Shown here: piece after piece, positions 7,101 through 49,479 of the stretch
Position numbering within the stretch: position 1 is the first letter of the stretch
Layout of the letters: each line of letters begins with the position of its first letter
Source of the DNA: Rhodothermales bacterium
Lineage (GTDB): Bacteria > Bacteroidota > Rhodothermia > Rhodothermales > VXPQ01
Assembly (NCBI GenBank): GCA_965223485.1
Contig: OZ244993.1
Span: 8,483 to 72,482, forward strand
Reading direction: 5' to 3'
DNA length: 64,000 nucleotides
Notes under the pieces: generated by a model
What the model saw: only the letters and a program-made list of their open reading frames with translations
Told to the model about the DNA's origin: nothing
The model's database searches: none
Position numbers and translations under genes: made by a program

Positions 7101-10100
7101 TGTTCTTTACATGCACCGTATAGGACATTAAAAAAGGATCCGCATTGTCCGCCGATACCGTCATCGTATAATCGTACTTCTCATCCTCGGAAACTGCATC
7201 GGGAACCCGGAAGAAAGGCCGCTCGATGTCCGTGGCGCTCAAAAGAGAGATAGCGGTAATCGGAGTGCTTCCCCTGGCCGTCCAGCCGAATCCGTAGACA
7301 GCAGGATCCGGAGCATCTGTATATTGACAATGCGGAAACTGGAAATCTGGCGCCCCTTCATAGACTGTAAACACATAAAAACCACCGATAAAACTTCCGC
7401 ATGGAACGATATCCGGCTTCTCCAGCACCGTGACAGTCACATCTTCGGTGACGTCATCGATGCCGGGAGCCGACAGCGTCACCGTGTATTCGTAATCCTT
7501 ATTCGCACCGCCCGGCTCGTCGATATCGCCCGGCGGCGCGAACGTCGGTTGCAGAATAGTCGTACTGCTCAGGTCGTTCGTATTCGATGTACTGCCCCGA
7601 ACCGCCCACGAGTACGCAGCGCCCGTCGGCTCGTTCGCCACCGAACAGTCCAGCGTAATATCGGCCGCACCCTCGTAGACCTCGGAATCATTGCAGGTGA
7701 TGGAGGGAGGAGGCGCCGTATCCGTGTCGAGCACATACACCCCAACCTGCACCGAAACGTCGTCTGCGTTCGCGGCGCTCACGGTCAGCGTATACTCGTA
7801 CGCCTCGTCCTCGTCCACCGCATCCGGCACGTTAAACGTCGGAACTTCTATGTTCGCCGCGCTAAGCAGCGCCGTATCCGGCGTGCTGTTCAGAGCCGTC
7901 CATGCGAACGCGTAGGTGGTTATATGCGCGTAGGCGGGCGCACCTGCCCATCCGTGTTCGCAAATGCGTAATGGAAAATCCGGGCTGCCTTCGCCCCTGG
8001 ATATAGCAAAGAAGAATGCACGTCCTACTTCCAGACAATAGATATCCGGTTTCTCCAGCACGGTCACGATAACGTCCTCGCTGGCCTGCTCGACGCCTCC
8101 GGCCGTCATCGTCACGGTGTATTCGTAGTCCTTATTCGCACCGCCCGGCTCGTCGATATCCCCCGGCACCGAAAATGTGGGAGTAATGCCGTCCGTACCG
8201 CTCAACCGATCAGCAATATGGGTACCGGTCCACGCGTATGCAGCGTCCGTCGGCTCGTTCGTCACTGAACAGTCCAGCGTAAAATCAGCTGCACCCTCGT
8301 ATACCTCGGAATCATTGCAGGTGATAACAGGAACCAGCACACCCCTGTCCTCCACCGTCACCGTAACTTTGCGAGTGTAGTCGTCTGCATTCGCCGCGCT
8401 CACTGTCAGCGTATACTCGTACGTCTCGTCGCTCCCTACCGTATCCGGTACGTAAAACGTCGGAGTTTCTATGTTCGTCGCGCTAAGCAGGTGCGTATCG
8501 GGCGTGCTGCCCCGAGCCGTCCATGCGTACGTGTAGTTGGAACCGACAGGCGCACCTTGCCATCCTGATTCACAACCATGGTATAGTAGCGTATCCGGGT
8601 TACCTTCGAATACGTCGGATAGGACCCAACCTTCTTTACTGCAATAGATATCCGGTTTCTCCAGCACGGTCACGATAACGTCCTCGCTGGCCTGCTCGAC
8701 GCCGCCGGCCGTCATCGTCACGGTGTATTCGTAGTCCTTATTCGCACCGCCCGGCTCGTCGATATCGCCCGGCGGCGCGAACGTCGGTTGCAGAATAGTC
8801 GTACTGCTCAGGTCGTTCGTATTCGATGTACTGCCCCGAACCGCCCACGAGTACGCAGCGTCCGTCGGCTCGTTCGCCACCGAACAGTCCAACGTAATGT
8901 CCGCCGTCCCTTCATAGACCGGGTCGGGATGTGTACAGGCGAGCGAAGGCGGCGGCGGACCCGTGTCGCGCACATGCATTCTTATAAGATCTCTATCCAC
9001 GTCCGGGGGATCACTGGCTATCACCCAATATCGGTACTCGGTGTCCCCGTTCACGTTTTCCGGCACATCGAAGACGGGGCTGGAGATGTCCACAGCACTG
9101 AGGCGGCTCGTGTTCGCAGTACCCCCCGCAGCCGTCCAACTCCAGGTATATGTCCTCCCCGGCTCCGCCGTGAGGCGACATTGGATTGTAAAATCGGGAT
9201 CTCCTTCATCGACGTGGTAGATGGTCCCGGACCACACAGTTAAGAAATGATACTCGTTGTCCACTGTGTCGTGGGTGCAATCTACGTTCCACGATGCACC
9301 GTTCGTTGCGGCAATATCGCCAACCGCCTCGCCTCCGACGACCCTGACCGTGACCCTGCGCCTTGCCGTGCGGGGCGTCCCCGAAGCCTGCGACGTCATG
9401 CTCGCTATGTAATGGTACTCCTCGCCCGCACTGCCCGCAGGAGCCGTAAACAACGCCGACGACCTGTCCGTCGCATCCAGAAGCGACGTGCTCGCGCCCC
9501 AAAGACCCTCCCACTCCCACAATATCGACGCCCCGTCCTCGTCGTAGTCCATACGATGCGACAACGGATCCGCCCCCTCGCAATCGAGCGCGATCGTCTC
9601 GCCCTCCTCAACCGCTACCTCCAGCGGACAATACACGCTCGGACGACTGCCCGATACGTACACCTCCACCTCCCGCCACGACGAAAGACCCGTAGCGCGG
9701 GAGGTCGCCGTCAAGCGGTACCGGTAAAGAAACGTCGTCTCCCCCGAATAAAACGACTCCAGCGTCTCGTACGCCGGAGCCTCCGGAGCCACTACCGAGG
9801 GATTCGGAACATCCTCGGGCGTCAACCTCGGATTGTCCAGATAGTCCCGCGTCGTACTTCCCACAGGCTCCCACGAATACTCCAGGTGTTCCTCTCCCGA
9901 AGCGTCCCATGCATGACACTCGACCTGTCCCGTCTCGAGCTCCTCCAGAAAAACAGCCACGGGACACTCCAGACGAGGAGGCGTCCGCCAGGCAGGACCG
10001 GAAGACTCACCCGGGCGCGCTTCTCCTTCCGGACCGAATCCGAAAGGATCCGGCGTCTTCTCCCGAGGCGCGCAGCTTTCCCCGAACTCGCCGGGAACCG

Positions 10101-10320
10101 TAAAAGGATCGCATTCCTCCTGCACAACGGGCGCCCAGGCCGATTCCTCCGCAACGCCGCCCTTTACCGGAAAACCCTCTTCCCGGATCACCTGGCCCTG
10201 CGCCGAAGAAACGCAGAGCAGCGCCCCAACGGCAAGCACGCACGCCAGGCGCCGAAACGCGATGGCGTTGCAGAAGTTGCGATCGCCGTCAAACAGGATA
10301 ACGGGGCGGGGATCGTTCAT
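1159..10320 (-). CDS. Giant secreted Ig/PKD-like repeat protein, paralog 1 (putative adhesin)
   Basis: ORF 1159-10443. Likely start is the ATG at 10320 (MNDPRPV..., TAAGG upstream), followed by the h-region and cleavage site LACVLAVGALLCVSSAQG. Roughly 24 repeats of ~98 aa (C-x16-C, YxYxW, SPTFxVP, ETYEYxLTVSA, EVTVTVLN), then the conserved C-terminal region. Confidence 0.88.
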   Translation of the reverse strand: MNDPRPVILFDGDRNFCNAIAFRRLACVLAVGALLCVSSAQGQVIREEGFPVKGGVAEESAWAPVVQEECDPFTVPGEFGESCAPREKTPDPFGFGPEGEARPGESSGPAWRTPPRLECPVAVFLEELETGQVECHAWDASGEEHLEYSWEPVGSTTRDYLDNPRLTPEDVPNPSVVAPEAPAYETLESFYSGETTFLYRYRLTATSRATGLSSWREVEVYVSGSRPSVYCPLEVAVEEGETIALDCEGADPLSHRMDYDEDGASILWEWEGLWGASTSLLDATDRSSALFTAPAGSAGEEYHYIASMTSQASGTPRTARRRVTVRVVGGEAVGDIAATNGASWNVDCTHDTVDNEYHFLTVWSGTIYHVDEGDPDFTIQCRLTAEPGRTYTWSWTAAGGTANTSRLSAVDISSPVFDVPENVNGDTEYRYWVIASDPPDVDRDLIRMHVRDTGPPPPSLACTHPDPVYEGTADITLDCSVANEPTDAAYSWAVRGSTSNTNDLSSTTILQPTFAPPGDIDEPGGANKDYEYTVTMTAGGVEQASEDVIVTVLEKPDIYCSKEGWVLSDVFEGNPDTLLYHGCESGWQGAPVGSNYTYAWTARGSTPDTHLLSATNIETPTFYVPDTVGSDETYEYTLTVSAANADDYTRKVTVTVEDRGVLVPVITCNDSEVYEGAADFTLDCSVTNEPTDAAYAWTGTHIADRLSGTDGITPTFSVPGDIDEPGGANKDYEYTVTMTAGGVEQASEDVIVTVLEKPDIYCLEVGRAFFFAISRGEGSPDFPLRICEHGWAGAPAYAHITTYAFAWTALNSTPDTALLSAANIEVPTFNVPDAVDEDEAYEYTLTVSAANADDVSVQVGVYVLDTDTAPPPSITCNDSEVYEGAADITLDCSVANEPTGAAYSWAVRGSTSNTNDLSSTTILQPTFAPPGDIDEPGGANKDYEYTVTLSAPGIDDVTEDVTVTVLEKPDIVPCGSFIGGFYVFTVYEGAPDFQFPHCQYTDAPDPAVYGFGWTARGSTPITAISLLSATDIERPFFRVPDAVSEDEKYDYTMTVSADNADPFLMSYTVHVKNKPDITVTCEDSPYEVYEGSPDIELECEASGAPGDDPQYTWSWSPTDRLTDHDTGTPTFAVPGSVEQDTTYTYTVRATAENAESATEEVTVTVLDTGLPVEIVCNGTYFERYAGSDDIELSCRLPNTPVGVYLWFWSAWSPDGLPQAVSVISGFPWELPEPHGLTWTGLASRRFHMPATVNSATTYKYTIGLWRGRCLGPCAPLTLNLFASQDITIRVLPRPAIAVACADPDPVYEGSADIELACEASGAPSGSSYTWSWSPTDRLTDHDTATPTFDVPYDVPQNTTYTYTVTASAENAEDGRAEVTVTVLHTDAPRPVVTCNDTDVYEGADDITLDCRVTTEPTDPTYSWTGTDVADRLTDTGSLTPTFVVPEEVDETTTYKYLLTVSAENAESASAEVTVTVLNRGALALVCTDPGSVYEGSEDFAFDCSASGAPGGSIYTYVWEPRGATPDLSLLSNTDDPSPTFSVPEEVEKDETYEYTLTVSADNAESVSEGVTMTVLNKEALVLVCADPGSVYEGSEDIAFDCSVSGAPSGSDYAYEWTARGSTANTDRLISGADGPAPTFSVPDALDETTTYEYLLTVSAENAEDATAEVTVKVLNLGSIALVCASPPLVYEGSEDFALDCSISGDTGDNVDYTYEWTAIGATPNTSRLSAADIPSPTFYVPDALDETTTYEYLLTARAENAESASAEVTVTVLNRGALAIVCTDPGSVYEGSEDFAFDCSASGAPAGSAYEYEWTARSSTTNTDMLSRADIASPVFAVPEEVDATTTYEYLLTASAENAESATAEVTVTVLNRGALAVACADPGSVYEGSEDVALDCAASGAPGGSIYTYVWEPRGATPNTSRLSAADIPSPTFYVPDALDETTTYEYLLTARAENAESASAEVTVTVLNRGALAIVCTDPGSVYEGSEDFAFDCSASGAPAGSAYEYEWTARSSTTNTDLLGAADIASPTFYVPDEVAGDETYEYTLTVSAENADPASTDVTVKVLNKGALALVCADPGSVYEGSADFALDCTASGAPAGSAYEYEWTARSSTTNTDMLSRADIASPVFAVPEEVDATTTYEYLLTASAENAESATAEVTVTVLNRGALAVACADPGSVYEGSEDVALDCAASGAPGGSIYTYVWEPRGDTPDTSLLSAVDVSSPMFYVPEEVDEDETYEYTLTVSAANAEDAAAEVTVTVLNRGALALACADPGSVYEGSEDFAFDCSASGAPGDDPQYTYVWTARGDTPDTSLLSAVDVSSPTFYVPDEVAGDETYEYTLTVSAENADPASTDVTVKVLNKGALALVCADPGSVYEGSEDFAFDCSASGAPGDDPQYTYAWTARGDTPDTSLLSAVDVSSPMFYVPDEVDEDETYEYTLTVSADNAEFVTEDVTVTVLNKEALALVCADPGSVYEGSADIAFDCSASGAPGDDPQYTYAWAARGDTPDTALLSAADVSSPMFLVPDAVDEDETYEYTLTVSADNAESVTEDVTVTVLDRIRTPAPDPVSPPAEEPPADPLPAVAESSSRAPSDPSALGVTVSASSLRFGVQSSQTEASLDPLTDGISTRVSGPYHAGRMTLSPGGGASFDENGEMDLSIEVISPVLLKREDAAEPSSLVLSPSWSYAESCEQLSSQAIGGLYTEATLTEGACRLLRFGGELDLTDAPSGRYAGAMDIVLRSGEREETHSVEVEVTVVPAQRVITIGPGGVRFSTSREVPAGLTEEQSLSIYPDVAFLTEEKPHGVFELSNPSLVPLEVSVSARFGYTEATENGREVVVEDASGSHLGDLSQVVDIHPAVVVLQPGEKGLVRYGVKEGALSDMDERGCAAFFDVVSSPRQYVRSDRMPEEVSGDRTARVTMRVPGVYVPGEGASQLRATLLSISYVGSVSATFLLETQDRPFAGEVLAYDGEGRELGRRETLVYTRSRVRVPLDRMPEGDAVFLRFSPRGPGRVPDPAAVRWNAPRRDVGAVQNESQTLPSVENSPTVYTR

Positions 10321-10364
10321 CGGATTGGCCTTACATGGCGATCGACTCTGAGATATCCAACGGT

Positions 10365-13300
10365 TTATTGCAATGCGCTCTTCGGGATTGTTCTCCGTTC
10401 TTTTTCCCCGGCGGCGCCTATGTCTCTTCCCGGCGCATTCCACGGAATGTTCACCGGATCGGGCACGCGGCCCGGCCCCCTCGGCGAAAATCGCAAAAAC
10501 ACCACCTCTTCCTCAGGCATACGATCCAGCGGCACGCGCACCCGGCTGCGCGTGTACACCAGCGTCTCCCGGCGGCCCAGCTCGCGGCCCTGCCCGTCGT
10601 ACGCCACCACCTCGCCCGCAAAAGGACGATCCTGCGTCTCCACCAAAAACGTCGCGGACATGGAAACCCCATACGACAACGACAACAGCGTGGCCCGTAG
10701 CTGAGACGCGCCTTCGCCGGGTACGTACACCCCCGGAACGCGCATCGTCACGCGAGCCGTCCTCTCTCCCGTAACCTCCTCCGGCATACGGTCCGTTCGC
10801 ACGTACTGACGAGGAGATGACACCACATCGAAAAACGCCGCGTAGCCCTGCTCCTCCATAGCCGCAAGCGCTCCCTCCTGCACCCCGTAACGGATAAGAC
10901 CCTTCTCGCCGGGCTGCAATACCAACACGCCCGGATGGATGTCCACCACCTGGGATAAATCGCCCAGGCGTGAGTCCGATGCATCCTCAACTACCACCTC
11001 CCGGCCGTCCTCGGTCGCCTCCGTATAGCCGAATCGAGCAGACACCGACACCTCCAGCGGAATGAGCGACGGATTCGACAGCTCGAACGCGCCGTTGGGC
11101 TTCCCTTCCGTCAAAAACGCAACGTCCGGGTAGATGCTAAGACTCTGATCCTCCGTCAAGCCGGCGGGAACCTCCCGCGACGTGCTAAAGCGAACCCCTC
11201 CGGGGCCTATCGTGATCACGCGCTGCGAAGGAACGACCGTCACTTCGACCTCGACCGAGTGCGTCTCTTCGCGCTCGCCCGAACGAAGAACCACGTCCAT
11301 AGCGCCCGCATACCGCCCCGAAGGCGCGCCCGTAAGGTCCAGCTCGCCTCCGAAGCGAAGAAGACGGCAGGCGCCCTCCGTAAGCGTCGCCTCCGTATAC
11401 AGCCCGCCTATCGCCTGAGAAGAAAGCTGCTCGCACGACTCCGCAAAGGACCAGGAAGGAGAAAGAACGAGCGAAGACGGCTCGGCAGCGCCCTCACGCT
11501 TCAGAAGAACCGGAGCGACAACCTCTATGGAAAGGTCCATCTCCCCGTTCTCGTCGAACGATGCGTCGCCGCCCGGCGAAAGCGTCATGCGCCCCGCATG
11601 GTACGGACCCGATACGCGCGTCGATATCTGATCCGTCATCGGATCGAGCGACGCCTCGGTCTGTGACGACTGCACCCCGAAACGAAGGGGCGAGGCGCTT
11701 ACCGTTACGCCAAGGGCCGTCGGATCCGAAGGCGCCCGTGAGGAAGACCCCGCTACGGGAGGCTCTTCTGCGGGAGGCGAAACAGGATCCGGGGCAGGCG
11801 TCCGTATCCTGTCGAGCACCGTTACCGTCACCTCCGCCGAACCGGACTCCGCATTCGCTGCAGAGACGGCCAGCAGGTACTCGTAGGTCTCGTCTTCTTC
11901 CACCTCTTCCGGCACATAGAACGTCGGCGAGGAAACGTCCGTAGCGCTAAGCAGCGCCGTATTTGTCGTAGAGCCTCGGGCCGTCCAGGCGTATTCGTAG
12001 GCAGAGCCCGCAGGAGCCCCCGAAGCCGAGCAATCCAGAGCGAAGTCCTCCGAGCCCTCATAGACCGAAGGCGGATCCACACATACCACGCTCAAGGCGC
12101 CCCGGTTCAGCACCGTCACGGTCACCTCTGCCGAACCGGACTCCGCATTCTCCGCCGAGACGGTCAAAAGGTACTCGTAGGTTTCGTCCTCCTCCACTTC
12201 CTCCGGCACGTAGAACATCGGGGAGGAAACGTCCGCAGCGCTGAGCAGCGCCGTATTTGTCGTAGAGCCTCTGGCCGTCCAGGCGTATTCGTAGGCAGAA
12301 CCCGCAGGAGCGCCCGAAGCCGTGCAGTCGAAAGCAACGTCCTCCGATCCCTCGTACACCGAACCCGGATCCGCGCACGCGAGCGCAAGCGCACCCCGGT
12401 TAAGCACCGTAACGGTCACATCCGCCGAAGCATCTATCGCATTCTCCGCCGAGACGGTCAGCAGGTACTCGTACGTTTCGTCCTCTGCAACTTCATCCGG
12501 TACATAGAACGTCGGAGAAGGTATGTCCACGGCGCTCAATCGGGACGTGTTCGGCGTCGCGCCCTGAGCTATCCACGAGTACACGTAGGCAGAACCCGCA
12601 GGAGCCCCCGACGCCGAACAGTCGAACGCGATGTCTGCCGATCCCTCGTATACCGAACCGGGGTCCGCGCACGCGAGCGCAAGCGCACCCCGGTTAAGCA
12701 CCGTAACGGTCACCTCCGCCGTTGCGGACTCCGCATTCTCCGCACTGGCCGTAAGCAGGTATTCGTACGTTTCGTCCTCTGCAACTTCATCCGGTACATA
12801 GAACGTCGGAGAAGGTATGTCCACGGCGCTCAATCGGGACGTGTTCGGCGTCGCGCCCTGAGCTATCCACGAGTACACGTAGGCAGAACCCGCAGGAGCC
12901 CCCGACGCCGAACAGTCGAACGCGATGTCTGCCGATCCCTCGTATACCGAACCGGGATCCGCGCACACGAGCGCAAGCGCCCCCTTATTCAGCACCGTCA
13001 CCGAAACCTCCGCCGCAGCGGACTCCGCATTCTCCGCCGAGACGGTTAGCAGGTACTCGTAGGTCGTGGTCTCGTCCAACGCATCCGGCACGTGGAACGT
13101 CGGAGAAGGTATGTCCGCCCCGCTAAGCAGATCCGTATTTGTCGTAGAGCCTCGGGCCGTCCAGGCGTACGCATAATCGACGTTGTCCCCCGTATCCCCT
13201 GAAATCGAACAGTCCAACGCGAAGTCCTCCGAACCTTCGTACACCAGGGGAGGCGATGCGCAAACGAGCGCAATGGATCCGAGGTTAAGCACCTTCACCG

Positions 13301-16300
13301 TCACTTCCGCCGTTGCGGATTCCGCATTCTCCGCCGAAACCGTCAAAAGGTACTTGTACGTTTCGTCCTTCTCCACCTCCTCCGGCACGTCGAATGTCGG
13401 GGCGGGACCGTCCGCACTGGCAATAAGCAGGTCCGTGTTCGCCGTACTGCCCCGCGCCGTCCATTCGTACGCGTAGTCGGAGCCCGCAGGAGCGCCCGAC
13501 GCCGAACAGTCGAACGCGAAGTCCTCAGATCCCTCGTAGACCGAACCGGGGTCCGCACACGCAAGCGCAAGAGCGCCCCGGTTCAAAACCGTCACGGTCA
13601 CCTCCGCCGAAGCAGACTCCGCATTCTCCGCGCTCGCCGTAAGCAGGTACTCGTACGTTTCGTCCTCATCCACTTCCTCCGGCACGTCGAATGTCGGGGC
13701 GGGGCCATCCACGCCGCTGATTAGAAGGTCCGTGTTTGCCGTACTTCCCCGGACCGTCCAGGCGTACTCGTAGGCAGAACCTGCCGGAGCGCCCGAAACC
13801 GCGCAATCCAGAGCGAAATCCTCCGATCCCTCGTACACCGAACCCGGATCCGTGCATATAACGGCAAGCGCACCCCGGTTCAAAACCGTCACGGTCACCT
13901 CTGCCGTAGCGTCCTCCGCATTCTCCGCCGAGACGGTTAGCCTGTACTCGTACGTCTCGTCCCCTGCAACTTCCTCCGGTACATAGAACGTCGGGGAGGC
14001 GATGTCCGCAGCGCTCAATAGCGCCGTATCCGTCGTACTCCCCCGTCCCGTCCACTCGTACGTGTACTCGGAACCCGCCGGAGCACCGGACGCCGTACAA
14101 TCCAGAGCGAAATCCTCCGATCCCTCGTACACAGAACCCGGATCCGCGCATATAACGGCAAGCGCACCCCGGTTCAGCACCGTCACCGTCACCTCAGCCG
14201 TAGCGTCTTCCGCATTCGCCGCACGCGCCGTCAACAGGTACTCGTAGGTCGTCGTAGCGTCTACTTCCTCCGGCACGTAGAACGTCGGAGAAGCAATGTC
14301 CGCCGCGCTAAGCAGATCCGTATTCGTCGTTGAGCCTATGGCCGTCCACTCGTACGTATAATCGACGTTGTCCCCCGTATCCCCTGAAATCGAGCAGTCC
14401 AGCGCAAAGTCCGCCGAACCCTCGTACACCAGGGGAGGCGATGCGCAAACGAGCGCAATGGATCCGAGGTTAAGCACCTTCACCGTCACCTCTGCCCTTG
14501 CGGACTCCGCATTCTCCGCCGAGACGGTCAGCGTGTATTCGTACGTCTCGTCCTCGTCCACTTCTTCCGGCACCGCGAATGTCGGGGCGGGACCGTCCGT
14601 ACCGGCGACAAGCAGGTCCGTGTTCGCCGTACTGTTTCTGGCCGTCCAGGCGTATGTATACCCGGAGCCCGCGGGAGCCCCCGAAGCCGCGCAGTCGAAC
14701 GCAACGTCCTCCGATCCCTCGTACACCGAACCCGGATCCGCGCATATAACGGCAAGCGCACCCCGGTTCAGCACCGTCACCGTCACCTCCGCCCTCGCAT
14801 CTTCCGCGTTCTCAGCACGCGCCGTCAACAGGTACTCGTACGTCGTCGTCTCCTCCAACGCATCCGGCACGTAGAACGTCGGGGAGGCAATGTCCGCAGC
14901 GCTCAATCGGAACGTGTTCGGCGTACTGCCCCGCGCCGTCCATTCGTACGCGTAGTCGGAGCCAGCAGGAGCCCCCGAAGCCGAGCAATCCAGAGCGAAG
15001 TCCTCCGAGCCCTCATAGACCGAAGGCGGATCCACACATACCACGCTCAAGGCGCCCCGGTTCAGCACCGTCACCGTCACCTCCGCCCTCGCATCTTCCG
15101 CGTTCTCCGCACTGGCCGTAAGCAGGTACTCGTACGTCGTCGTCGCGTCCACCTCCTCCGGCACGTCGAATGTCGGGGCGGGACCGTCCGCACCGGCAAT
15201 AAGCAGGTCCGTGTTCGCCGTACTGCCCCGCGCCGTCCATTCGTACGCGTAGTCGGAGCCAGCAGGAGCCCCCGAAGCCGAGCAGTCGAACGCGAAGTCT
15301 TCCGAGCCTTCGTACACCGAACCCGGATCCGCGCATATAACGGCAAGCGCACCCCGGTTCAGCACCGTCACCGTCACCTCTGCCGTAGCGTCCTCCGCAT
15401 TCGCCGCCGAGACGGTCAACAGGTATTCGTAGGTCGTCGTAGCATCCACCTCCTCCGGTACCTCGAACGTCGGCTTCTCAACGGTCGTACTACTCAACCT
15501 GCTCGTGTCGCCGCCGCCCCGCGCCGTCCATTCGTACGCGTAGTCGGAGCCCGCAGGAGCGCCCGACGCCGCGCAGTCCAAAGCGAAATCCTCCGATCCC
15601 TCATACACCGGAGAAGGCGTCGCGCACGCAACGCTAAGCGCTCTCTTGTTCAGTACTTTCACGGTAACGTCTTCGGTGACATCATCAATGCCCGAAGCCG
15701 ACAGTGTCACCGTGTATTCGTAGTCTGTGTCCGCATCTACATTGTCCGGCACGTCGAACGCCGGTTTCAGTATGGTCGAGCTGCTCAACCGATTGGCAAT
15801 ATCCGTACCTGTCCACGCGTACGTAGCGCCAGACGGCTCATCTGTCACCGAACAGTCCAGCGTAATATCGTCCGCGCCCTCGTATACCGGGTCTGGATCT
15901 ATACAGGTTATGCCAGGCGTCTCCGGGGGAGACGTATCCGTGTCCCGAACCGTCACCTCAACGGTCGCCCGCCCCGCATCGGAAAAGAGCGACGTAACCG
16001 TTGCCGTGTAAACGTAGGTCGTATCCCTGTCTACATCCTCCGGCACATCGAAAGTGGGCGTGCCGGTATCGTGATCCGTGAGCCGATCGGTCGGAGACCA
16101 GGACCAGGTATAGGTATACGGAGGGACCAAACTTCCGTCGGCGCGGCAGTCGAAAGCGAAATCGGGCGTATCGGCTCCTTCCGGGACGTCGTAGGCCGTC
16201 CCGGTGCAAGTGACCGAAATGTCGCCCCACTCCCTTACTGTTATGTCCACGAAAAATTTCCCCGTCTCGCCAACATCCGAAGTAGCCGTTACGATGTATT

Positions 16301-19097: not shown

Positions 19098-19150
19098 ACA
19101 TAGTCCTTAAAAAATAAGGCGCAAGACGTATTCCGGAGCCGATAGGGCAC

Positions 19151-19171
19151 AAAAAACCCATCCCTACGGGT
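19151..19171 (-). terminator. Putative intrinsic terminator/attenuator in the 5' leader of paralog 2
   Basis: Minus strand reads ACCCGT-AGGG-ATGGGT followed by TTTTT, ~55 nt before the start codon. Confidence 0.5.
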
Positions 19172-19233
19172 ATACCGGAAGCATTTTCGCACCTCAAAAT
19201 ACGCTGCATGCCACCTTTGTGGCACTTCCGAAT

Positions 19234-19265
19234 CAAATTTACTGTATGGGAAGATAAAAAATCAA
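19234..19265 (-). promoter_or_regulatory. Putative Bacteroidota-type promoter TTG-N21-TAAATTTG
   Basis: Matches the TAnnTTTG -7 box with TTG 21 nt upstream. Both boxes are conserved in the two copies while the spacer diverges. Confidence 0.55.
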
Positions 19266-19445
19266 GGGGTGTAAAATATAAACGTTAATATATAAATTGA
19301 TTGTCCGTTGCAAAAAATAAGGAACCGCAATCGGCGCCGTGTTTACGCCAAACCAGCTATAGCGGTTATGGGCATAGGAACGGTAGATGGCGTTGCAGAA
19401 GTTGCAATCGCCGTCAAACAGGATAACGGGGCGGGGATCGTTCAT
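19239..19445 (-). pseudogene. DCC-family (DUF393/YuxK-like) thiol-disulfide oxidoreductase relic with internal deletion
   Basis: MNDPRPVILFDGDCNFCNA (DxxCxxC motif) is joined directly to IYRSYAHNRYSWFG, which matches the C-terminal Y..A.NRY.WFG motif of the family. The middle of the protein is missing. Confidence 0.75.
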
Positions 19446-19489
19446 CGGATCGGCCTTAAATGGCGATCGACTCTGAGATATCCAACAGT

Positions 19490-22400
19490 TTATTGCAATG
19501 CGCTCTTCGGGGTTGTTCTCCCTTCTTTTTCCCCGGCAGCGCCTATGTCTCTTCCCGGCGCATTCCACTCAACGGATGTGGGCTCGGGTACTCGACTCGA
19601 TCCCCAAGGCGCAAATCGTAAAAACACCACCTCTTCCTCAGGCATACGATCCAGCGGCACGCGCACCCGGCTGCGCGTGTACACCAGCGTCTCCCGGCGG
19701 CCCAGCTCGCGGCCCTGCCCGTCGTACGCCACCACCTCGCCCGCAAAAGGACGATCCTGCGTCTCCAGCAAAAACGTCGCGGACATGGAAACCCCATACG
19801 ACAACGACAACAGCCGAGCCCGTAGCTGAGACGCGCCTTCGCCGGGTACGTACACACCCGGAACGCGCATCGTCACGCGAGCCGTCCTCTCTCCCGTAAC
19901 CTCCTCCGGCATACGGTCCGAACGCACGTACTGACGAGGAGATGACACCACATCGAAAAACGCCGCGTAGCCCTTCTCCGACATAGCCGCAAGCGCTCCC
20001 TCCTTCACCCCGTAACGCACCAGACCCTTCTCTCCGGGCATCAAGACCAACACGCCCGGATGTATGTCCACCACCTTCGACAAATCGCCCAGACGAGAAC
20101 CATCGGGCGACTCTATCACTACTTCCCGCCCATTCTCCGTCGCCTCCGTATACCCGAATCGAGCAGACACCGACACCTCCAGCGGAATGAGCGACGGATT
20201 CGACAGCTCGAACGCGCCGTTGGGCTTCCCTTCCGTCAAAAACGCAACGTCCGGGTAGATGCTAAGACTCTGATCCTCCGTCAAGCCGGCGGGAACCTCC
20301 CGCGACGTGCTGAAGCGAACCCCTCCGGGGCCTATCGTGATCACGCGCTGCGAAGGAACGACCGTCACTTCGACCTCGACCGAGTGCGTCTCTTCGCGCT
20401 CGCCCGAACGAAGAACGATGTCCATAGCGCCCGCATACCGGCCCGAAGGCGCGTCCGTAAGGTCCAGCTCGCCTCCGAAGCGAAGAAGGCGGCAGGCGCC
20501 CTCCGTAAGCGTCGCCTCCGTATACAGCCCGCCTATCGCCTGAGAAGAAAGCTGCTCGCACGACTCCGCAAAGGACCAGGAAGGAGAAAGAACGAGCGAA
20601 GACGGCCCGGCAGCGCCCTCGCGCTTCAGAAGAACCGGAGCGATGACCTCTATGGACAGGTCCATCTCCCCGTTCTCGTCGAACGATGCGCCGCCGCCCG
20701 GCGAAAGCGTCATGCGCCCCGCATGGTACGGACCCGATACGCGCGTCGATATCTGATCCGTCAGCGGATCGAGCGACGCCTCGGTCTGTGACGACTGCAC
20801 CCCGAAACGCAAGGACGATGCGCTTACCGTTACGCCAAGAGCCGACGGATCCGAAGGCGCCCGCGAGGAAGACTCCGCTACGGCAGGCAAAGGATCGGCG
20901 GGGGGCTCTTCTGCGGGAGGCGAAACAGGATCCGGGGCAGGCGTCCGTATCCGGTCGAGCACCGTTACGGTAACGTCCGCCGCAGCGTCTTTCGCATTCG
21001 CCGCAGAGACGGTCAAAAGGTACTCGTAGGTCTCGTCTTCTTCCACCTCTTCCGGTACATGGAACGTCGGAGAAGCAGTGTCCCCAGCACTCAATAGCGA
21101 CGTGTCCGGCGTATCGCCCCGAGCCGTCCACGCGTACGTATACTGCGGGTCGTCGCCCGGAGCCCCGGACGCCGAGCAGTCGAAAGTAACGTCCTCCGAT
21201 CCCTCGTACACCGAACCGGGGTCCGCGCACGCGAGCGCAAGCGCACCCTTGTTCAGCACCGTCACCGTCACCTCAGCCGTCGCGTCTTCTACGTTCTCCG
21301 CAGAGACGGTCAGCAGGTACTCGTAGGTCTCGTCTTCTTCCACCTCTTCCGGCACATAGAACGTCGGAGAAGCAGTGTCCCCAGCACTCAATAGCGCCGT
21401 GTCCGGCGTATCGCCCCGAGCCGCCCACGCGTACGTATACTGCGGGTTGTCGCCTGGAGCCCCCGACGCCGAGCAGTCGAACGCGATGTCTGCCGATCCC
21501 TCGTATACCGAACCGGGGTCCGCGCATATAACGGCAAGAGCGCCACTGTTCAGCACCGTCACCGTTACCTCCGCCGTCGCGTCTTCTGCGTTCTCCGCAG
21601 AGACGGTCAGCAGATACTCGTACCTCGTGGTCTCGTCCACCTCGTCCGGCACGTCGAATGTCGGGGTGGGACCGTCCGCAGCACTGAGCAGCGCCGTATC
21701 CGGCGTATCGCCCCGAGCCGTCCATGCATACGTGTACTCGGGATCGTCGCCCGGAGCCCCGGATGCCGAGCAGTCGAACGCGATGTCTTCCGATCCCTCG
21801 TACACCGGAGAAGGCATCGCGCATACCACGCGCAGCGCTCCCACATTCAACACCGTCACCGTCACATCCGCCGAAGCGTCTTCCGCATTCTCCGCCGAGA
21901 CGGTCAGCAGGTATTCGTACGTCGTCGTCTCGTCCAACGCATCCGGTACGTAGAACGTCGGCGAAGCGATGTCCACCCCACTGAGCAGATCCGTATTTGT
22001 CGTCGCGCCTATGGCCGTCCAGGCGTATTCGTAGGCAGAGCCCGCAGGCGCCCCCGAAGCCGAGCAGTCCAGAGCGAAGTTCTCCGATCCCTCGTACACC
22101 GAACCCGGATTCGCGCATATAACGGCAAGCGCACCGCGGTTCAGCACCGTCACCGTAACCTCCGCCGAAGCGGACTCCGCATTCGCTGCAGAGACGGTCA
22201 GCAGGTACTCGTACGTCGTCGTCTCGTCCAACGCATCCGGTACCGCGAATGTCGGGGAGGCGATGTCCGCCCCGCTAAGCAGATCCGTATTTGTCGTAGA
22301 GCCTATGGCCGTCCAGGCGTATTCGTAGGCAGAGCCCGCAGGCGCCCCCGAAGCCGAGCAGTCCAGAGCGAAGTTCTCCGATCCCTCGTACACCGAACCG

Positions 22401-25400
22401 GGGTCCGCGCATATAACGGCAAGCGCACCCTTGTTCAGCACCGTCACCGTAACCTCCGCCGAACCGGACTCCGCATTCGCTGCAGAGACGGTCAGCAGGT
22501 ACTCGTACGTTTCGTCCTCTGCAACTTCATCCGGTACATAGAATGTTGGCGAGGCGATGTCCGCCCCGCTAAGCAGATCCGTATTTGTCGTAGAGCCTAT
22601 GGCCGTCCAGGCGTATTCGTAGGCAGAGCCCGCAGGAGCCCCCGACGCCGAGCAGTCGAACGCGATGTCTGCCGATCCCTCGTACACCGAACCCGGATCC
22701 GCGCACGCGAGCGCAAGCGCACCCCGGTTCAGCACCGTCACCGTCACCTCCGCCGTTGCGGACTCCGCATTCGCCGCGCTCGCCGTAAGCAGGTACTCGT
22801 AGGTCGTCGTAGCGTCCACTTCCTCTGGTACGTAGAACATTGGAGAAGCAATGTCCGCAGCGCTCAATCGGGACGTATTTGTCGTTGAGCCTCTGGCCGT
22901 CCAGGCGTACGCATAATCGACGTTGTCCCCCGTATCCCCTGAAATCGAGCAGTCCAAAGCGAAGTCCGCCGAACCCTCGTACACCAGGGGAGGCGATGCG
23001 CAAACGAGCGCAATGGATCCGAGGTTAAGCACCTTCACCGTCACTTCCGCCGTTGCGGACTCCGCATTCTCCGCCGAAACCGTCAAAAGGTACTCGTACG
23101 TTTCGTCCTCGTCCACCTCCTCCGGTACGTCGAATGTCGGGGTGGGACCGTCCGCACCGGCAACAAGCAGATCCGTATTCGTCGTTGAGCCTCTGGCCAT
23201 CCAGGCGTATTCGTACTCGGAACCCCCGGGCGCGCCCGAAGCCGCGCAGTCCAGGGCGAAGTCCGCAGACCCCTCGTGCACCGGAGAAGGCGTCGCGCAC
23301 GCAACATACAACGCCTTCTTGTTCAGCACCGTCACGGTAACGTCGGCGCTGGCGGGATCCGCATTCGCCGCCGAGACGGTCAGTGTATACTCGTACGTCT
23401 CGTCCTCGTCCACTTGCTCCGGTACGTAGAACGTCGGAGAGGCGATCTCCGTGGCGCTCAATCGGGCCGTGTTCGCCGTACTGCCCCGCGCCGTCCATTC
23501 GTACGCGTAGTCGGAGCCAGCAGGAACGCCCGAAGCCGAGCAATCCAGAGCGAAGTCCTCCGAGCCCTCATAGACCGAAGGCGGATCCACACATACCACG
23601 CTCAAGGCGCCCCGGTTAAGCACCGTAACGGTAACGTCGGCGCTGGCGGGATCCGCATTCTCCGCTGAGACGGTCAGCGTGTACTCGTATGTCTCGTCCT
23701 CTGCAACTTCATCCGGTACATAGAATGTTGGCGAGGCGATGTCCGCCCCGCTAAGCAGATCCGTATTTGTCGTTGAGCCTATGGCCGTCCAGGCGTATTC
23801 GTAGGCAGAGCCCGCAGGAGCCCCCGATGCCGAACAGTCGAACGCGATGTCTGCCGATCCCTCGTACACCGAACCGGGGGCCGCGCATATAACGGCAAGA
23901 GCGCCCCGGTTAAGCACCGTAACGGTCACCTCAGCCGAAGCAGACTCCGCATTCTCCGCGCTCGCCGTAAGCAGGTACTCGTACGTCGTCGTCTCCTCCA
24001 ACGCATCCGGCACGTAGAACGTCGGGGAGGCGATGTCCGCAGCGCTAAGCAGATCCGTATTCGTCGTTGAGCCTATGGCCGTCCACTCGTACGTATAATC
24101 GACGTTGTCCCCCGTATCCCCTGAAATCGAGCAGTCCAGCGCAAAGTCCGCCGAACCCTCGTACACCAGGGGAGGCGATGCGCAAACGAGCGCAATGGAT
24201 CCGAGGTTAAGCACCTTCACCGTCACTTCCGCCGTTGCGGACTCCGCATTCTCCGCCGAGACGGTCAGCGTGTATTCGTACGTCTCGTCCTCGTCCACCT
24301 CCTCCGGCACGGCAAACGTCGGAGAAGCGATGTCCGCAGCGCTCAATCGGGCCGTGTTCGCCGTACCGTTGCTGGCCGTCCACTCATATTCGTAGGTGGA
24401 ACCCCCGGGAGCGCCCGAGGCCGCGCAGTCCAGGGCGAAGTCCTCCGATCCCTCGTACACCGGAGAAGGCGTCGCGCACGCAACATCCAATGTCTTCTTG
24501 TTCAGTACTTTCACCGTAACATCCTCTGTCGCGGACTCCGCATTATCGGCGCTTACCGTCAGCGTATATTCGTATGTTTCGTCGCTGTCCACCTCCTCCG
24601 GTACCTCGAACGTCGGCTTCTCAACGGTCGTACTACTCAACCTGCTCGTGTCGCCGCCGCCCTGCGCCGTCCATTCGTACGCGTAGGCGGAGCCCGCAGG
24701 AGCGCCCGACGCCGCGCAGTCCAGAGCGAAATCCTCCGATCCCTCATACACCGGAGAAGGCGTCGCGCACGCAACGCTAAGCGCTCCCTTGTTCAGTACT
24801 TTCACTGTAACGTCGGCGCTGGCGGGATCCGCATTCTCCGCCGAAACCGTCAGCAGGTATTCGTACGTTTCGTCCTCGTCCACTTCCTCCGGCACGGCAA
24901 ACGTCGGAGAAGGATCGTCCGTATTGCTTAAGAGCGACAGGTCAGGAGTCGCGCCCCGAGGCTCCCAAACGTATGTATAGATAGAACCCGCAGGCGCGCC
25001 CGAGGCCGAGCAAGCAAAAGCAAAATCGGCAGCACCCTCGTATACAGAACCCGGATCCGCGCACGTAACGGTGATAACCGGCCTCTTCAACACGGTTACG
25101 GTAACATCTTCGGTAACGTCAGCAGCCCCGCTGGCCGACAGCGTCACCGTGTAGTCGTAGTCCGTGTCCGCATCTACGTTGTCCGGCGGCGTGAACGTCG
25201 GGGCGTAACCGTCCGCGCCGCTCAACCGATTCGCGACATCCGTGCCCGTCCACGAATACGCCGCGTCCGAAGGCGCGTTCGTCACCGAACAATCCAGCGT
25301 AATATCGTCCGCGCCCTCGTACACCGAGGTATCGTTACACGTAACAAAAGGACGCGGCGCATCCGTGTGCAGCACCGTCACTGTAACCTCGGCCCTGCCG

Positions 25401-28400
25401 TCTTCCGCATTCTCGGCGCTCGCCGTTACCGTGTACGTATACGTCGTGTTTTGCGGCACATCGTAAGGCACGTCGAATGTCGGCGTTTCCGTATCGTGAT
25501 TCTCAAGACGAGTAGTTGGAGACCATGACCACGTATACTGCGGATCGTCCCCCGGAGCACCCGACGCCGAGCACTCCAGTTCAATGTCGGCCGAACCCTC
25601 GTACACGGGATCGGGATCCGCGCACGTAACAGCGATTGCAGGCCTTGGCAGCACTCTTATCGTAATATCCTGGCTCGCGTACAAGTCTAACGTTAGCGGC
25701 GCACATCCCCCAGGACATCGGCCTCTCCAAACCCCCAGAGTGTACTTGTAGGTCGTAGGGCTATTCACTGTTGCAGGCATGCGGAACGTCCTCGACCCGT
25801 ATCCGGTCCCGGTCAATCCCTGCGGCCTCGGCACCCCCGGTGGCCAGCCGCTCGCGGAGATGGTATGGGGAAAGCCATCGGCGCTCCAGCGCGCCCACAA
25901 CCACCGGAAGACGCCACTACCAACCGGCCTGCTCGAGAACTCACAACTCAATTCAATGTCGTCCGATCCGGCGTACCTTTCAAAATAGGTTCCGTTACAA
26001 ACCATCTCGCCGGGAAGACCCGTGTCGAGCACCGTCACCGTCACCTCTTCCGTTGCCGATTCCGCGTTCTCCGCCGAGACGGTCAGCCTGTACTCGTACG
26101 TCACGTTTCTCGTAATAAAGGGCGGCGCTCTGAAGGTAGGCGAAGAAATGTCCGTCGCGCTAAGGCGCTGAATGTGCCAATTGTCCGGCGGACTCCCCCG
26201 GGCCGTCCAGACATAGTCGTAGGCGGAACCCGAAGGCGCGCCCGACGCCGAGCAGTCCAGCGTGGTATACCCCGAACCCTCGTACACCTCGTACGGATTG
26301 CCGGCGCAATCTACGTCGATCGCAGGCTTGTTCAGTACGGTTACCGTAACGTCTTCGCTGGCCTGCTCGACGCCGGCGGCCGACAGCGTCACCGTGTAAT
26401 CGTAGTCCGTGTTTGCACTTACACTAACCGGCACGGCAAATGTCGGAGTGAGACTACTCGTGTCCGTCAACCGATCGGCGACGTCCGTGCCCGTCCAACT
26501 GTACGCAGCATCCGACGGCGCGTTCGTCACCGTACAGTCCAGCGTAAAACCGGCCGCACCCTCGTAGACCTCGGAATCATTGCAGGTGATGGAGGGAGGA
26601 GGCGCCGTATCCGTGTCGAGCACCGTCACCGTAACGTTGGCGGTCTCATCGTCCGCATTCTCCGCCGTAGCCGTCACCGCGTACGTATACGTCGTGTCTT
26701 GCTCTACACTGCCAGGTACAGCGAACGTGGGCGTACCCGTATCGTGATCCGTAAGACGGGTATTCGGAGACCATGACCACGTATATGAAGAGCCCCTCGG
26801 AGCCCCCGACGCCTCGCACTCCAGTTCAATGTCGGCCGATCCCTCGTACACCTCGTAGGAGCTTTCGCACATGACCGTTATATCTATGTCCCACACTATC
26901 AGATCAACCCACGCTACAGCGTCATCCGCGTTCGCGGCGCTCACGGTCAGCGTATACGAGTACCTCTCGTCCTCGTCCACCGCATCCGGTACGTCAAACG
27001 TCGGAACTTCTATGTCCGCCGCGCTGAGCAGCGCCGTATCCGGCGTACCGTTCCGAGCCGTCCATGCGTACGTGTAACCGACAGGCCCTCCTTCCCATCC
27101 GCTTGCACAAGCGCGTAGTGGATAATCCCGGCTGCCTTCAACAAGACCTAATGTTGTTAGAAAATGGCTTAACATTCCGGGTACTGACGGGCAATAGATA
27201 TCCGGCTTCTCCAATACCGTTACGGTAACGTCTTCGCTGGCCTGCTCGACGCCGCCGACCGTCATCGTCACCGTGTAGTAATAGTCCTTATCCGCCTCGT
27301 CCGGCTCGTCGATATCGCCCGGCGCCGAAAATGTGGGAGTAATGCCGTCCGTACCGCTCAACCGATCGGCGACGTCCGTGCCCGTCCAGCTGTACGCAGC
27401 ATCCGACGGCGCGTTCGTCACCGAACAGTCCAGCGTAATATCGTCCGCACCCTCGTACACCTCGCTATCTGCGCATGTAAGCGAAAGGGGCGCCTTTATC
27501 TGAATCTGCACCGAAGCGTCGTCCGCGTTCTCTGCGCTCACTGTCAGCATATACGAGTAATACGAGTACGTCCCGATGACGAGGTCGCTCTCTACCTCGT
27601 CCGGCACGTAAAACGTCGGAACTTCTATGTTCGCCGCGCTAAGCAGGTCGGTGTTCGCCGTGCCGAGGGAGGACAAAGCCGTCCATGCGTACGCGTAAAC
27701 GGCGCCAGCGCCCGGGGCGCCTGTCCATACACCGTACGGACAAAAGCGTAATGGAAACTCCCGGGTACTTTCATGCAAGGTGAATACAATTACTACTCTT
27801 CTCGGTGCAGAACAATAGATATCCGGCTTCTCCAGCACGGTCACCATAACGTCCTCGCTGGCCTGCTCGACGCCTCCGGCGGTCATCGTCACCGTATACT
27901 CGTAGTCCTTATTCGCACCGTCCACCTCATCGATATCGCCCGGCGGCGCGAACGTCGGTTGCAGAATAGTCGTACTGCTCAGGTCGTTCGTATTCGATGT
28001 ACTGCCCCGCACCGCCCACGCGTACGTAGCGCCCGTCGGCTCGTTCGCCACCGAACAGTCCAGCGTGAAATTGCCCGTGCCTTCGTACGCCTCCGCATCC
28101 GAACAGGTAATGGAGGGAGGAGGCGCCGTATCCGTGTCGAGCACCGTCACCCTAACCTCGGCAGCGCCGTCGTCTGCATTCTCCGCGCTCGCCGTTACCG
28201 TGTACGTCCAGGTCGTATTCCGGTCTACATCGTCCGGCGCGTCGAACGTGGGCGTAGCCGTATTGCGACCCGTCAGATTGTCGGTCGGAGACCATGACCA
28301 CGTATAGTCCGGATCGTCCCCCGGAGCGCCGGACACCGTGCAATCCAGATCGAAATCCGCATCACCCTCGTCCACCTCGTACGGATCGCCGGCGCAATCT

Positions 28401-29752: not shown

Positions 29753-29796
29753 CGGATCGGCCTTACATGGCGATCGACTCTGAGATATCCAACGGT

Positions 29797-49000: not shown

Positions 49001-49338
49001 ACTACTTCCTCCAGACCCACAGCGTCCTCTTGCATGGAGATGTTCACCTCCGTCGTAAGTTCGATGGCCACGCGAACGCCTTCGACGACTACCGGCGTAA
49101 AACCGATGAACGTAGCCCGCAGCGTATGGATACCGGGACGAATATTCAGGATAGAAAAGTAGCCGTCGACGTTCGTGACAGCGCCAATGGTGGTTCCGTC
49201 GACGATCACATTGACCCCGATCAGTGGCGCCTCATTTTGATCTACCACACTGCCCGCAATTTTTCCGGTTTGCGCGACGGCAGCGGTAGACGACCACAAC
49301 AACGTCAGGAAGAGAAGAATAGTATAGCGGTAGTTCAT
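46057..49338 (-). CDS. TonB-dependent receptor with N-terminal CarboxypepD_reg-like domain
   Basis: QTGKIAGSV..LIGVNV..GAVTNVDGYF, plug motif GGFSAEYG..SGVINVVT, LSPRIGLSHP, GNPLLEPERT, C-terminal Phe. Confidence 0.92.
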   Translation of the reverse strand: MNYRYTILLFLTLLWSSTAAVAQTGKIAGSVVDQNEAPLIGVNVIVDGTTIGAVTNVDGYFSILNIRPGIHTLRATFIGFTPVVVEGVRVAIELTTEVNISMQEDAVGLEEVVVVAEQPIIQRDIAASERNIDSEEIASGKYQTIAQVLTAQVAFNDISTVEDRPEIRGSFFDESLYLVDGVNYNDPLTNQPHYRANLDAVEEIKVQTGGFSAEYGDVRSGVINVVTREGGERYSGSINLQYSPAGYKHFGPGPFDFKSPIVEPFVDSNLGAFEGGNSFFDGWNSIAASLPENQAHAGAPMELYARYLWRHRSQDAINELKRLEGQGIVQFAEGVDPDDLVFHQTGVNPDYRISATLGGPIPFYRPMKFFLSYDGIQSEYAYRFPEASFQDQNFRGKLTTNVGRGKKLNMHGYYSKQKGGTGGQGPGIGGFVSSNPFSSTGGTNKYWYPHCAVAGDRTRQIYGTQWTHALSANTFYKLQVTHDRIDYSMNLDYRNTAPIPGSGGITSSSKTSGSGIDSGRIGTEAEAMQRATDGQEGWERWREWAMIRIGQHWYDEAPKGYGPVNWRDVTGEYRMESCNLRADESASRGWDAVGNFTSQMNRSNQVRAGLQFRSEDFNQYYEAIDPSVNSGNVWDSGARHLIGAAYLQDKLEFQGFVATLGLRLDVLNTGDFPTILEGCDLFDTGNTANCTGGDQGGPWSEGIAPGNTTEDVEGGSLLGIKETIVTENLGGHRRTHTRLSPRIGLSHPISTVAKVFLNYGHFYQWPNAVQMYRLRMDTRRGYRVVRLGNPLLEPERTIQYEVGYEQNLFSRMNLRMTGYYKNINGEISDVRFYPLSYGGGDYRMSLNRVFRDVRGFEAFLELRREVIPYLSGWVSANYLVESGAAYGYQRFYEDPIRQSRLANTQVSNPDVRPIIKSSVSFHLPDNFRGPRLGEVSLLGGLNLSLSYTWRRGRQFTWNPAEFPLVEDNLRWRPYQRWDLRLTKSLFRSGNYETAFYIDVSNLFNNRNISSFSGTEVDASSSWPWDGHKWWKTERRDYMESLGYTAENQNEDGTFDNTIGDPGDWDDDVIDLPAYSPWTFLERRDIFFGVKLYF

Positions 49339-49479
49339 GGCATATCCCTTGGTTTGGTATCCAGATACGGCAAAAAACGTCCGTGCACAGGGACCACTGT
49401 CAACACAGTGGGAATTGCCCAACGAAATCCTTACGGGAATCGTTATCCGGGCGGCTTGTTATCATTTTAGGGCAGGGAA

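Follow-up and report, generated by a model that had tools for sequence, protein, structure and literature searches.

How do short stretches that cannot be aligned come to lie within the otherwise conserved repeats of a giant protein, and does their variability betray a system that rewrites them? This question was raised by a 64,000-nucleotide stretch of DNA from an uncultured Rhodothermales bacterium (assembly GCA_965223485.1, contig OZ244993.1, positions 8,483 to 72,482; hereafter the window), the first 38.6 kb of which hold four tandem minus-strand giant open reading frames (ORFs), p1–p4, of 3,094, 2,910, 3,474 and 2,924 codons. A preliminary description had singled out six repeats of these proteins that carry the motif LEKPDI, likened the segment that follows the motif to the complementarity-determining region (CDR) loops of antibodies, and proposed that the segments were undergoing localized diversification by an unknown mechanism. 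Our analyses did not support an active, localized diversification system. Instead, the segments are probably an old, paralogue-specific and most likely surface-facing part of a specialized PKD-like repeat within a mosaic, adhesin-like family.

Six variable segments in two-domain cassettes

LEKPDI occurred exactly six times in the window, at amino acids (aa) 594, 796 and 1007 of p1, aa 556 of p2, and aa 694 and 901 of p3, which agreed with the three, one, two and zero cassettes initially assigned to p1–p4. All six segments quoted in the preliminary description were present, each lying inside the approximate range first given for it (Table 1, in which cassettes are named for the protein and the position of the motif). 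The motif was somewhat less uniform at its edge than had been thought: TVLEKPDI was invariant, but the residue before it, listed as an invariant V, varied (V, I, M and others). In all six cases the LEKPDI linker was preceded by a conserved partner repeat with the acidic motif DIDE(P/V)xxA(N/D)KDY, as originally noted.

In the domain that follows the linker, the six sequences diverged after the first Cys over 10–17 residues that could not be aligned and were unequal in number, before converging again on a shared framework (EG..DFPL..C..GW.GAP...Y.YAWTARG...). Across 26 aligned cassettes, the mean column entropy of the segment between the first Cys and EG was 2.95 bits, compared with 0.98 bits for the partner repeat and 0.57 bits for the linker, with further variability in the next ~12 residues (2.1 bits) and in the last strand of the domain (2.2 bits). 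The six segments (hereafter loops) also had the composition attributed to them, being richer than the whole family in aromatic (16.5% versus 8.5%), aliphatic (27.8% versus 19.2%) and basic residues (K/R/H, 10.1% versus 5.8%) and poorer in acidic ones (D/E, 5.1% versus 15.9%). The claim that several were locally AT-rich likewise held up, with five of the six having a GC content of 0.33–0.49 and one of 0.70, compared with 0.61 for the genes.

A specialized subtype of PKD-like repeat

The repeats of these proteins matched the Pfam family PF22352 (K319L-like PKD) above its gathering cut-off of 27 bits, scoring 82.4 bits (E 2.4e-23) for the standard repeats of p2 and 37.6 bits (E 2.3e-09) for p2 aa 400–800; on the cassette-bearing piece of p2 two stretches matched, the better of which was the DIDE repeat. 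The homology of the domain that holds the variable segment to the standard repeats is apparent from the pattern C...EG...C...W...LSA...P.F.VP...Y.Y.LTVSA.NA, which it has in common with them, and from its modelled sandwich fold. It differs from them in the distance between its two cysteines, which is 20–38 residues rather than 17, and in a 'GW.GAP' signature after the second Cys. Among the 365 repeats with recognizable cysteines, the spacing was 17 residues in 247 and at least 20 in 45. We refer to the repeat with the longer spacing as the expanded domain.

The genome of this bacterium is a closed single contig of 3,245,449 bases (96.4% complete), in which the giant family comprises 24 long ORFs that together amount to 61,221 codons, or ~5.7% of the genome. 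We counted 29 LEKPDI-type cassettes with an expanded domain genome-wide. Because an expanded domain came next after 25 of the 28 DIDE-type repeats and after 29 of the 37 LEKPDI-type linkers, the two-domain cassette is real, though not absolute. Expanded Cys-Cys spacing was also seen apart from a LEKPDI linker or DIDE partner, at p1 aa 412–445 (~9109–9210; 33 residues) and at p2 aa 858–887 (29 residues), the examples being CTHDTVDNEYHFLTVWSGTIYHVDEGDPDFTIQC, also present unchanged in paralogue F11, and CQVVGTPSNVSNARMTIVIWEKLPDPRFAC. When a single cassette domain served as the query, 10 of 11 other genomes of the genus contained matches (E ≤1e-10), compared with none of 19 genomes from other genera. 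A full-text literature search found nothing on this family of giant immunoglobulin (Ig)-repeat proteins in Rhodothermales.

Half of each loop is a predicted strand

We built AlphaFold2 models of two cassettes, p1-796 and p3-901, from the paralogue alignment, and used their secondary structure and predicted local distance difference test (pLDDT) scores. The two models had mean pLDDT values of 89.1 and 89.5 and predicted template modelling (pTM) scores of 0.76 and 0.74, respectively, and in each the two cassette domains were modelled as Ig-like two-sheet sandwiches with A and A′ strands. In the p1-796 model residues 109–115 were coil (block pLDDT 79) and residues 116–122 strand, and in the p3-901 model residues 109–118 were coil (block pLDDT 62) and residues 119–125 strand. 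The 7–10 residues from the first Cys to the A′ strand were thus lower-confidence coil in both models, and a seven-residue strand stood directly before EG, where standard repeats have a four-residue A′ strand; the models therefore assign half of each 'CDR-like loop' to a strand. In support of the preliminary description, the segment is the most variable part of the cassette; as corrections to it, about half of the segment is a predicted β strand and variability reaches beyond it.

We propose that the six segments correspond to the A-to-A′ region of the specialized PKD/Ig-like subtype, in which the extra residues would form a short coil and a lengthened A′ strand. A disulfide between the two cysteines probably delimits the segment. 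This subtype nearly always follows a conserved repeat whose E–F loop carries the acidic DIDE...KDY motif. The DIDE motif lay in the E–F loop of the first domain of the cassette in the models. Given the up-down topology of this fold, the motif should point towards the domain junction where the variable segment emerges, which would place both the motif and the segment at the junction of the two domains. Foldseek returned only generic tandem Ig and cadherin folds, with pairs of extracellular cadherin domains from protocadherin-15 and cadherin-23 at the top (template modelling scores 0.43–0.47). The DIDE motif may resemble motifs of cadherins, in whose Ca2+-rigidified junctions acidic motifs at the E–F loop and the linker coordinate Ca2+.

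Old divergence and stable loops

To judge the age of the cassettes we turned to nonsynonymous (pN) and synonymous (pS) divergence. The frameworks of the six window domains had a mean pN of 0.28 and a mean pS of 0.49, with pS reaching 0.84, an excess of synonymous over nonsynonymous change that indicates old divergence and that matches what the preliminary description had associated with simple ancient drift rather than with diversification. When 13 close pairs were pooled, the ratio of nonsynonymous to synonymous substitution (dN/dS) was 1.25 for the loops (pN 0.146, pS 0.119; 174 codons), 0.94 for the rest of the expanded domain (pN 0.108, pS 0.114; 1,090 codons) and 0.42 for the partner repeat (pN 0.085, pS 0.185; 794 codons). 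The whole expanded domain, beyond the loop alone, evolves under little net constraint between paralogues. Between species, the framework had a pN/pS of ~0.35.

Loop sequences were retained among close relatives. When we compared loops with frameworks in 75 unique expanded domains (from the same genome and 21 database proteins), the 30 pairs with a framework identity of at least 0.75 had mean loop identities of 0.72–0.92 and no change in loop length, whereas below 0.75 loop identity was 0.25–0.33 and most pairs were unequal in loop length. Among recent paralogues, p3 (F03) and F07 differed at 1 of 13 residues in one loop and at 0 of 17 in the other, and F10 and F17 had loop differences at 2 of 16 residues. 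In orthologues from other species, which represent cassettes of the same type other than the six of the window, differences in the loop and the framework numbered 1/13 versus 7/51, 3/13 versus 17/85, 2/13 versus 12/51 and 0/16 versus 1/85. Over 1,939 aligned residues, a strain variant of p1 in the database, P0005, had 23 differences from p1, none of which fell in the three loops; because only ~0.5 loop differences would be expected by chance, the zero shows only an absence of excess variation.

Public sequencing runs extended this comparison to populations, in the form of contigs, which hide rare variants, and for the three loops of p1. The region of the p1-594 loop (8506–8671) was covered by contigs of four runs from three studies with no differences. 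At the p1-796 loop two runs had no differences, and both runs of the third study had the same substitution (8007 C>A, Ala to Ser). The p1-1007 loop had no differences in contigs of runs X1 and X2 (7229–7437), and runs X5 and X6 had no depth at 7326–7396, a gap that proves nothing. The within-population variation that the preliminary description had suggested looking for thus came, in these contigs, to a single substitution across the three p1 loops; 109 further differences were counted in the stretch.

Might the segment be a neutral spacer, that is, a tolerant stretch without function that simply drifts, such that its variability is uninformative about binding? A dN/dS of ~1.25 with pN near pS is what such a spacer would produce, the frameworks have diverged anciently, the coil part of the segment is modelled at lower confidence, and the depletion of GC-ending codons that we describe below (27 of 77, compared with 50.5 expected) would fit weak codon selection. 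The length of a drifting spacer, however, should not be constant in 30 of 30 pairs with similar frameworks, and in three species the differences between orthologous loops did not exceed those of the framework. The segment is also consistently hydrophobic and aromatic in composition, and it is coupled to a conserved partner, with 25 of 28 DIDE repeats leading into an expanded domain. We therefore regard a neutral spacer as unlikely.

We favour instead a history in which loop versions would have arisen by ordinary substitution and by insertion and deletion in a weakly constrained segment that probably faces the surface, with each version, once established, being kept between recent paralogues, strains and species.

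No dedicated diversification machinery

We searched the genome for traces of a dedicated mutator. No reverse transcriptase was found in the closed genome (0 matches to PF00078, RVT_1), whereas 3 of 14 control genomes gave a match. Four of the six loops had no second copy in the genome by blastn-short, which otherwise returned chance matches of 10–16 nucleotides (nt), and the two p3 loops recurred only in paralogue F07, at 97.6% and 100% identity; beyond these, the donor or template copies envisaged by the preliminary description were absent. In a tblastn search for silent cassettes, all but 55 of 8,506 high-scoring segment pairs (HSPs) fell within the 24 ORFs, the exceptions lying at five places that were weak or bordered on the ORFs, and promoterless partial cassettes were not found, all 150 scored matches among 424 candidates lying in stop-free frames of at least 706 aa. 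A frameshift origin of the loops was excluded, as the DNA alignment reflected real divergence without shifted frames.

The notion of localized diversification is most specific in the form of targeted hypermutation, in which a diversity-generating retroelement or another dedicated mutator would rewrite the segment. Between p1-594 and p1-796, ~135 nt are identical up to the first Cys codon, at which identity ends, and both this sharp break and the AT-rich composition of the loops are features that targeted rewriting might leave. The identical flank is explained, however, by conversion tracts and by the conservation of the partner repeat, and we consider the 135-nt identity best read as a conversion tract in that repeat. 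With no RVT_1 match, no template repeat, and loops that were stable, a diversity-generating retroelement could be rejected. More generally, loops that are identical or nearly so in recent paralogues, in the strain variant, in the contigs of three studies and in other species are not what a mutator would leave, and we judge targeted hypermutation of any kind to be exceedingly improbable. Without reverse transcriptase, donors or silent cassettes, and with loops fixed in the contigs and in P0005, the proposal of an unknown diversifying mechanism was not supported.

Gene conversion carries cassettes between paralogues

A mechanism of a more general kind was evident in DNA tracts shared between family members. 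We identified these tracts by searching for exact k-mer matches, because a megablast filter for ≥98% identity missed them when HSPs ran on through diverged DNA, and found 79 exact tracts of at least 200 nt, the longest being 1,050 nt. Genes of the window had tracts in common with F06, F07, F08, F09, F10, F11 and F22. Exact tracts of 243, 285 and 1,050 nt linked p3 to F07 (G000:C1:172290-182993), and the two genes were nearly identical in DNA over aa ~638–1167, a region that includes both cassettes, compared with 61–97% identity elsewhere; likewise, F10 and F17 were nearly identical only over aa ~500–800, with one cassette inside. These tracts indicate that gene conversion moves cassettes between genes, and new combinations of loops would arise because conversion copies whole stretches, cassettes included, among the 24 giant paralogues.

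Such exchange raises the possibility of recombinational variation, in which the paralogues would serve as a cassette library and conversion into expressed genes would alter the cell surface, as with pilE/pilS or vlsE but with full-length donors. The 79 tracts, the ties between window genes and F06–F11 and F22, and the confinement of near-identity in F03/F07 and F10/F17 to cassette-holding stretches all fit this idea. Contigs from public runs also contained joints at which roughly one cassette length (631–686 nt) is skipped or repeated, which are indistinguishable from, and may equally stem from, other paralogues. Against the idea, promoterless or partial donor cassettes were found nowhere beyond the 24 long ORFs, and four of the loops in the window are single-copy in the genome. 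Tandem repeats are also expected to undergo conversion even if it serves no adaptive purpose. Moreover, the architecture and loops of p1 were the same in a second assembly and in the contigs of three studies, which implies slow turnover at the scale of populations. We consider recombinational variation improbable.

A trough of AT-ending codons

The AT-richness of the loops turned out to be part of a broader feature. In every expanded domain of the 29 cassettes, a trough of rare AT-ending codons began at the first Cys and extended ~10 codons beyond the second. GC content at third codon positions (GC3) was 0.68–0.77 in the partner repeat and fell to 0.38 in the variable segment; it was 0.39 over the ten codons that lead up to the second Cys, 0.43 over the ten that follow it, and 0.56–0.74 thereafter, while GC content at codon positions 1 and 2 did not dip across the trough. 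Amino-acid content was rejected as the cause, because the shortfall of GC-ending codons in the six window loops exceeded what their residues would predict (z = −5.8), as it did in 44 expanded loops after correction for amino acids (268 of 601, compared with 396.9 expected; z = −11.5).

Even at conserved residues within the trough, the synonymous codon was the opposite of the one used at the homologous position in standard repeats. The E of EG was GAA in 24 of 27 cases, compared with GAG in 132 of 185 standard repeats; D was GAT in 19 of 19, compared with GAC in 145 of 185; and the second Cys was TGT in 23 of 29, compared with TGC in 163 of 185. The P of FPL was CCA in 11 of 11 cases, a codon that makes up 4% of the Pro codons of the family; the L or I of FPL was TTA, CTA or ATA in 11 of 11; and the G of GW was GGA in 9 of 11. 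The same codons were present in other species of the genus.

The trough might be caused by concerted evolution within each class of repeat, by selection for a pause in translation, or by divergence of codons that would protect the module against conversion by standard repeats. In a more elaborate proposal, the cassette is a protected specificity module in a recombining library of 24 giant surface proteins: gene conversion would shuffle whole cassettes, and the conserved AT-ending run over the variable segment and its conserved flanks, with codons opposite to those of ~250 standard repeats, would block overwriting by the standard repeats or impose a translational pause. We find this proposal rather doubtful. 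If it were true, the family would consist of a stalk under concerted evolution fitted with insulated binding modules that are exchanged combinatorially.

Several observations weigh against our preferred reading of the segments as old, paralogue-specific surface elements. The trough is strong over the segment and is left unaccounted for by old divergence. The population contigs drop rare variants and span only the three p1 loops. In some lineages the loops change faster than the framework: the p1-594 loop is just 42% identical to its nearest relatives at 73–78% framework identity, with the length and an S...W.L..V.EG pattern being kept, and loops of the p1-1007 group have lengths of 10, 13, 14 and 22 at 67–73% framework identity. 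Finally, the gradient in dN/dS from 1.25 in the loop through 0.94 in the rest of the domain to 0.42 in the partner could reflect diversifying selection on the whole domain.

The giant proteins and their surroundings

Each of the four proteins contains ~20–25 repeats of ~100 residues (in p1, ~21 or more PKD/Ig-like repeats), and p4 consists mainly of nearly identical standard repeats, among which exact tracts reach 448 nt. Judged from their sequences, all four begin with a hydrophobic, signal-like stretch ending in SSAQGQ, which is separated from the repeat array by a shared region of ~350 residues. We placed the start of p1 at MNDPRPV because the database variant P0005 begins there; the stop-to-stop frames of p1 (10320–10443) and p3 (29752–29914) continue upstream beyond this likely start, into the 3′ end of the gene before.

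After a proline-rich linker, all four proteins end in a conserved region of ~480–495 aa. This region gave no match to Pfam (C-terminal 581 aa of p2) or NCBIfam (last 511 aa of p2), and a protein atlas offered only weak leads (scores ≤0.87) to Ig-like clusters of the HYDIN, VesB and PapD type. In the C-terminal 581 aa of p2 there was no RTX Pfam match, and no RTX or type I secretion system (T1SS) signal was detected; Por_Secre_tail (PF18962), found on cargo of the type IX secretion system (T9SS), was not found in the C-terminal piece of p2 either. P0072 and P0088, two relatives from the database that share this type of cassette, have the T9SS sorting domain PF18962 and leucine-rich repeats at the position of the C-terminal region.

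Among the neighbouring genes in the window, none for a secretion system was seen adjoining the giant genes. Downstream of the array lies a SusC-like TonB-dependent receptor with CarboxypepD_reg and Plug domains (46057–49422), and its other neighbours include genes for a DUF6588 protein, a BCCT transporter and a sugar-phosphate isomerase-like protein.

Table 1. Positions in the window of the giant genes, their C-terminal regions and the six cassettes.
Feature	Position	Strand	Details
p1	gene 1159..10320; ORF 1159-10443	-	~3,053 aa from likely start MNDPRPV; three LEKPDI cassettes
p2	10365..19097	-	2,910 aa; one LEKPDI cassette
p3	gene 19490..29752; ORF 19490-29914	-	~3,420 aa from likely start; two LEKPDI cassettes
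p4	29797..38571	-	2,924 aa; zero LEKPDI cassettes
p1 C-terminal region	1162-2646	-	
p2 C-terminal region	10368-11819	-	
p3 C-terminal region	19493-20962	-	
p4 C-terminal region	29800-31251	-	
Cassette p1-594	8338..8946	-	DIDE repeat 8665-8946 (motif 8731-8766); linker 8647-8664; expanded domain 8338-8652
p1-594 variable segment	8605-8640	-	SKEGWVLSDVFE
Cassette p1-796	7726..8328	-	DIDE repeat 8059-8328 (motif 8125-8160); linker 8041-8058; expanded domain 7726-8046
p1-796 variable segment	7993-8034	-	LEVGRAFFFAISRG
Cassette p1-1007	7093..7704	-	DIDE repeat 7426-7704 (motif 7492-7527); linker 7408-7425; expanded domain 7093-7410
p1-1007 variable segment	7360-7398	-	GSFIGGFYVFTVY
Cassette p2-556	17112..17717	-	DIDE repeat 17433-17717 (motif 17499-17534); linker 17415-17432; expanded domain 17112-17420
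p2-556 variable segment	17379-17408	-	SGPTRGFVAN; GC 0.70, not AT-rich, unlike the other five loops
Cassette p3-694	27506..28114	-	DIDE repeat 27836-28114 (motif 27902-27937); linker 27818-27835; expanded domain 27506-27823
p3-694 variable segment	27773-27811	-	SAPRRVVIVFTLH; one residue different in paralogue F07 (I to V)
Cassette p3-901	26873..27484	-	DIDE repeat 27215-27484 (motif 27281-27316); linker 27197-27214; expanded domain 26873-27202
p3-901 variable segment	27140-27190	-	PSVPGMLSHFLTTLGLV; identical in F07

Comparison with known systems and implications

The proteins of the window are most likely secreted, surface-exposed, adhesin-like fibres. The giant repetitive Ig-like adhesins of Gram-negative bacteria (SiiE of Salmonella and MpIBP/RTX) reach thousands of residues and consist of tens of ~100-residue β-sandwich repeats, with acidic residues near the repeat junctions and a minority of divergent domains to which specificity is attributed (PMC5466336, PMC4083281, PMC7493085). 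The window proteins resemble these adhesins in size, in their arrays of ~100-residue β sandwiches, in acidic residues near the junctions and in having a minority of divergent domains. They are unlike the SiiE and RTX adhesins in having an apparent signal-peptide-like N terminus and no detected RTX/T1SS signal, in the presence of 24 paralogues in one 3.2-Mb genome rather than one gene, and in a C-terminal region of ~495 aa without a Pfam or NCBIfam match. With respect to the PF22352 PKD domain, the standard and DIDE repeats score above the cut-off and the modelled fold is a two-sheet sandwich, whereas the expanded subtype departs from the standard repeats in its Cys-Cys spacing and GW.GAP signature.

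Two systems that do vary surface proteins provide further points of comparison. The targets of diversity-generating retroelements have a short hypervariable stretch within the conserved scaffold of a surface protein, and the window proteins likewise have such a stretch in a conserved scaffold; in contrast to those targets, the segment is not C-terminal, has no associated reverse transcriptase or template, and is stable in populations. Type IV pilin has a disulfide-bounded hypervariable region that is varied by gene conversion from pilS to pilE. The cassettes resemble it in that the segment lies between two invariant cysteines and that paralogous copies have mosaic tracts in common, and differ from it in their unrelated fold, in having no silent partial cassettes and in the lack of within-population variation in the contigs.

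An antibody-like reading of the loops would have implied a new bacterial hypermutation system, and the evidence argues against one. What remains is of moderate interest in its own right: a small genome that spends ~5.7% of its length on 24 mosaic giant Ig-repeat proteins. The rare-codon trough may offer a small test case for how repeats escape homogenization, or for codon-directed pausing in secreted repeat proteins. The variable segments are paralogue-specific yet kept between orthologues, a pattern that fits a surface element determining specificity, and the cassette is the best candidate for a site at which these proteins would make partner-specific contacts. Because the segment, predicted to be bounded by a disulfide, is specific to each paralogue and yet kept between species, the cassette would be a concrete place to seek a binding partner.

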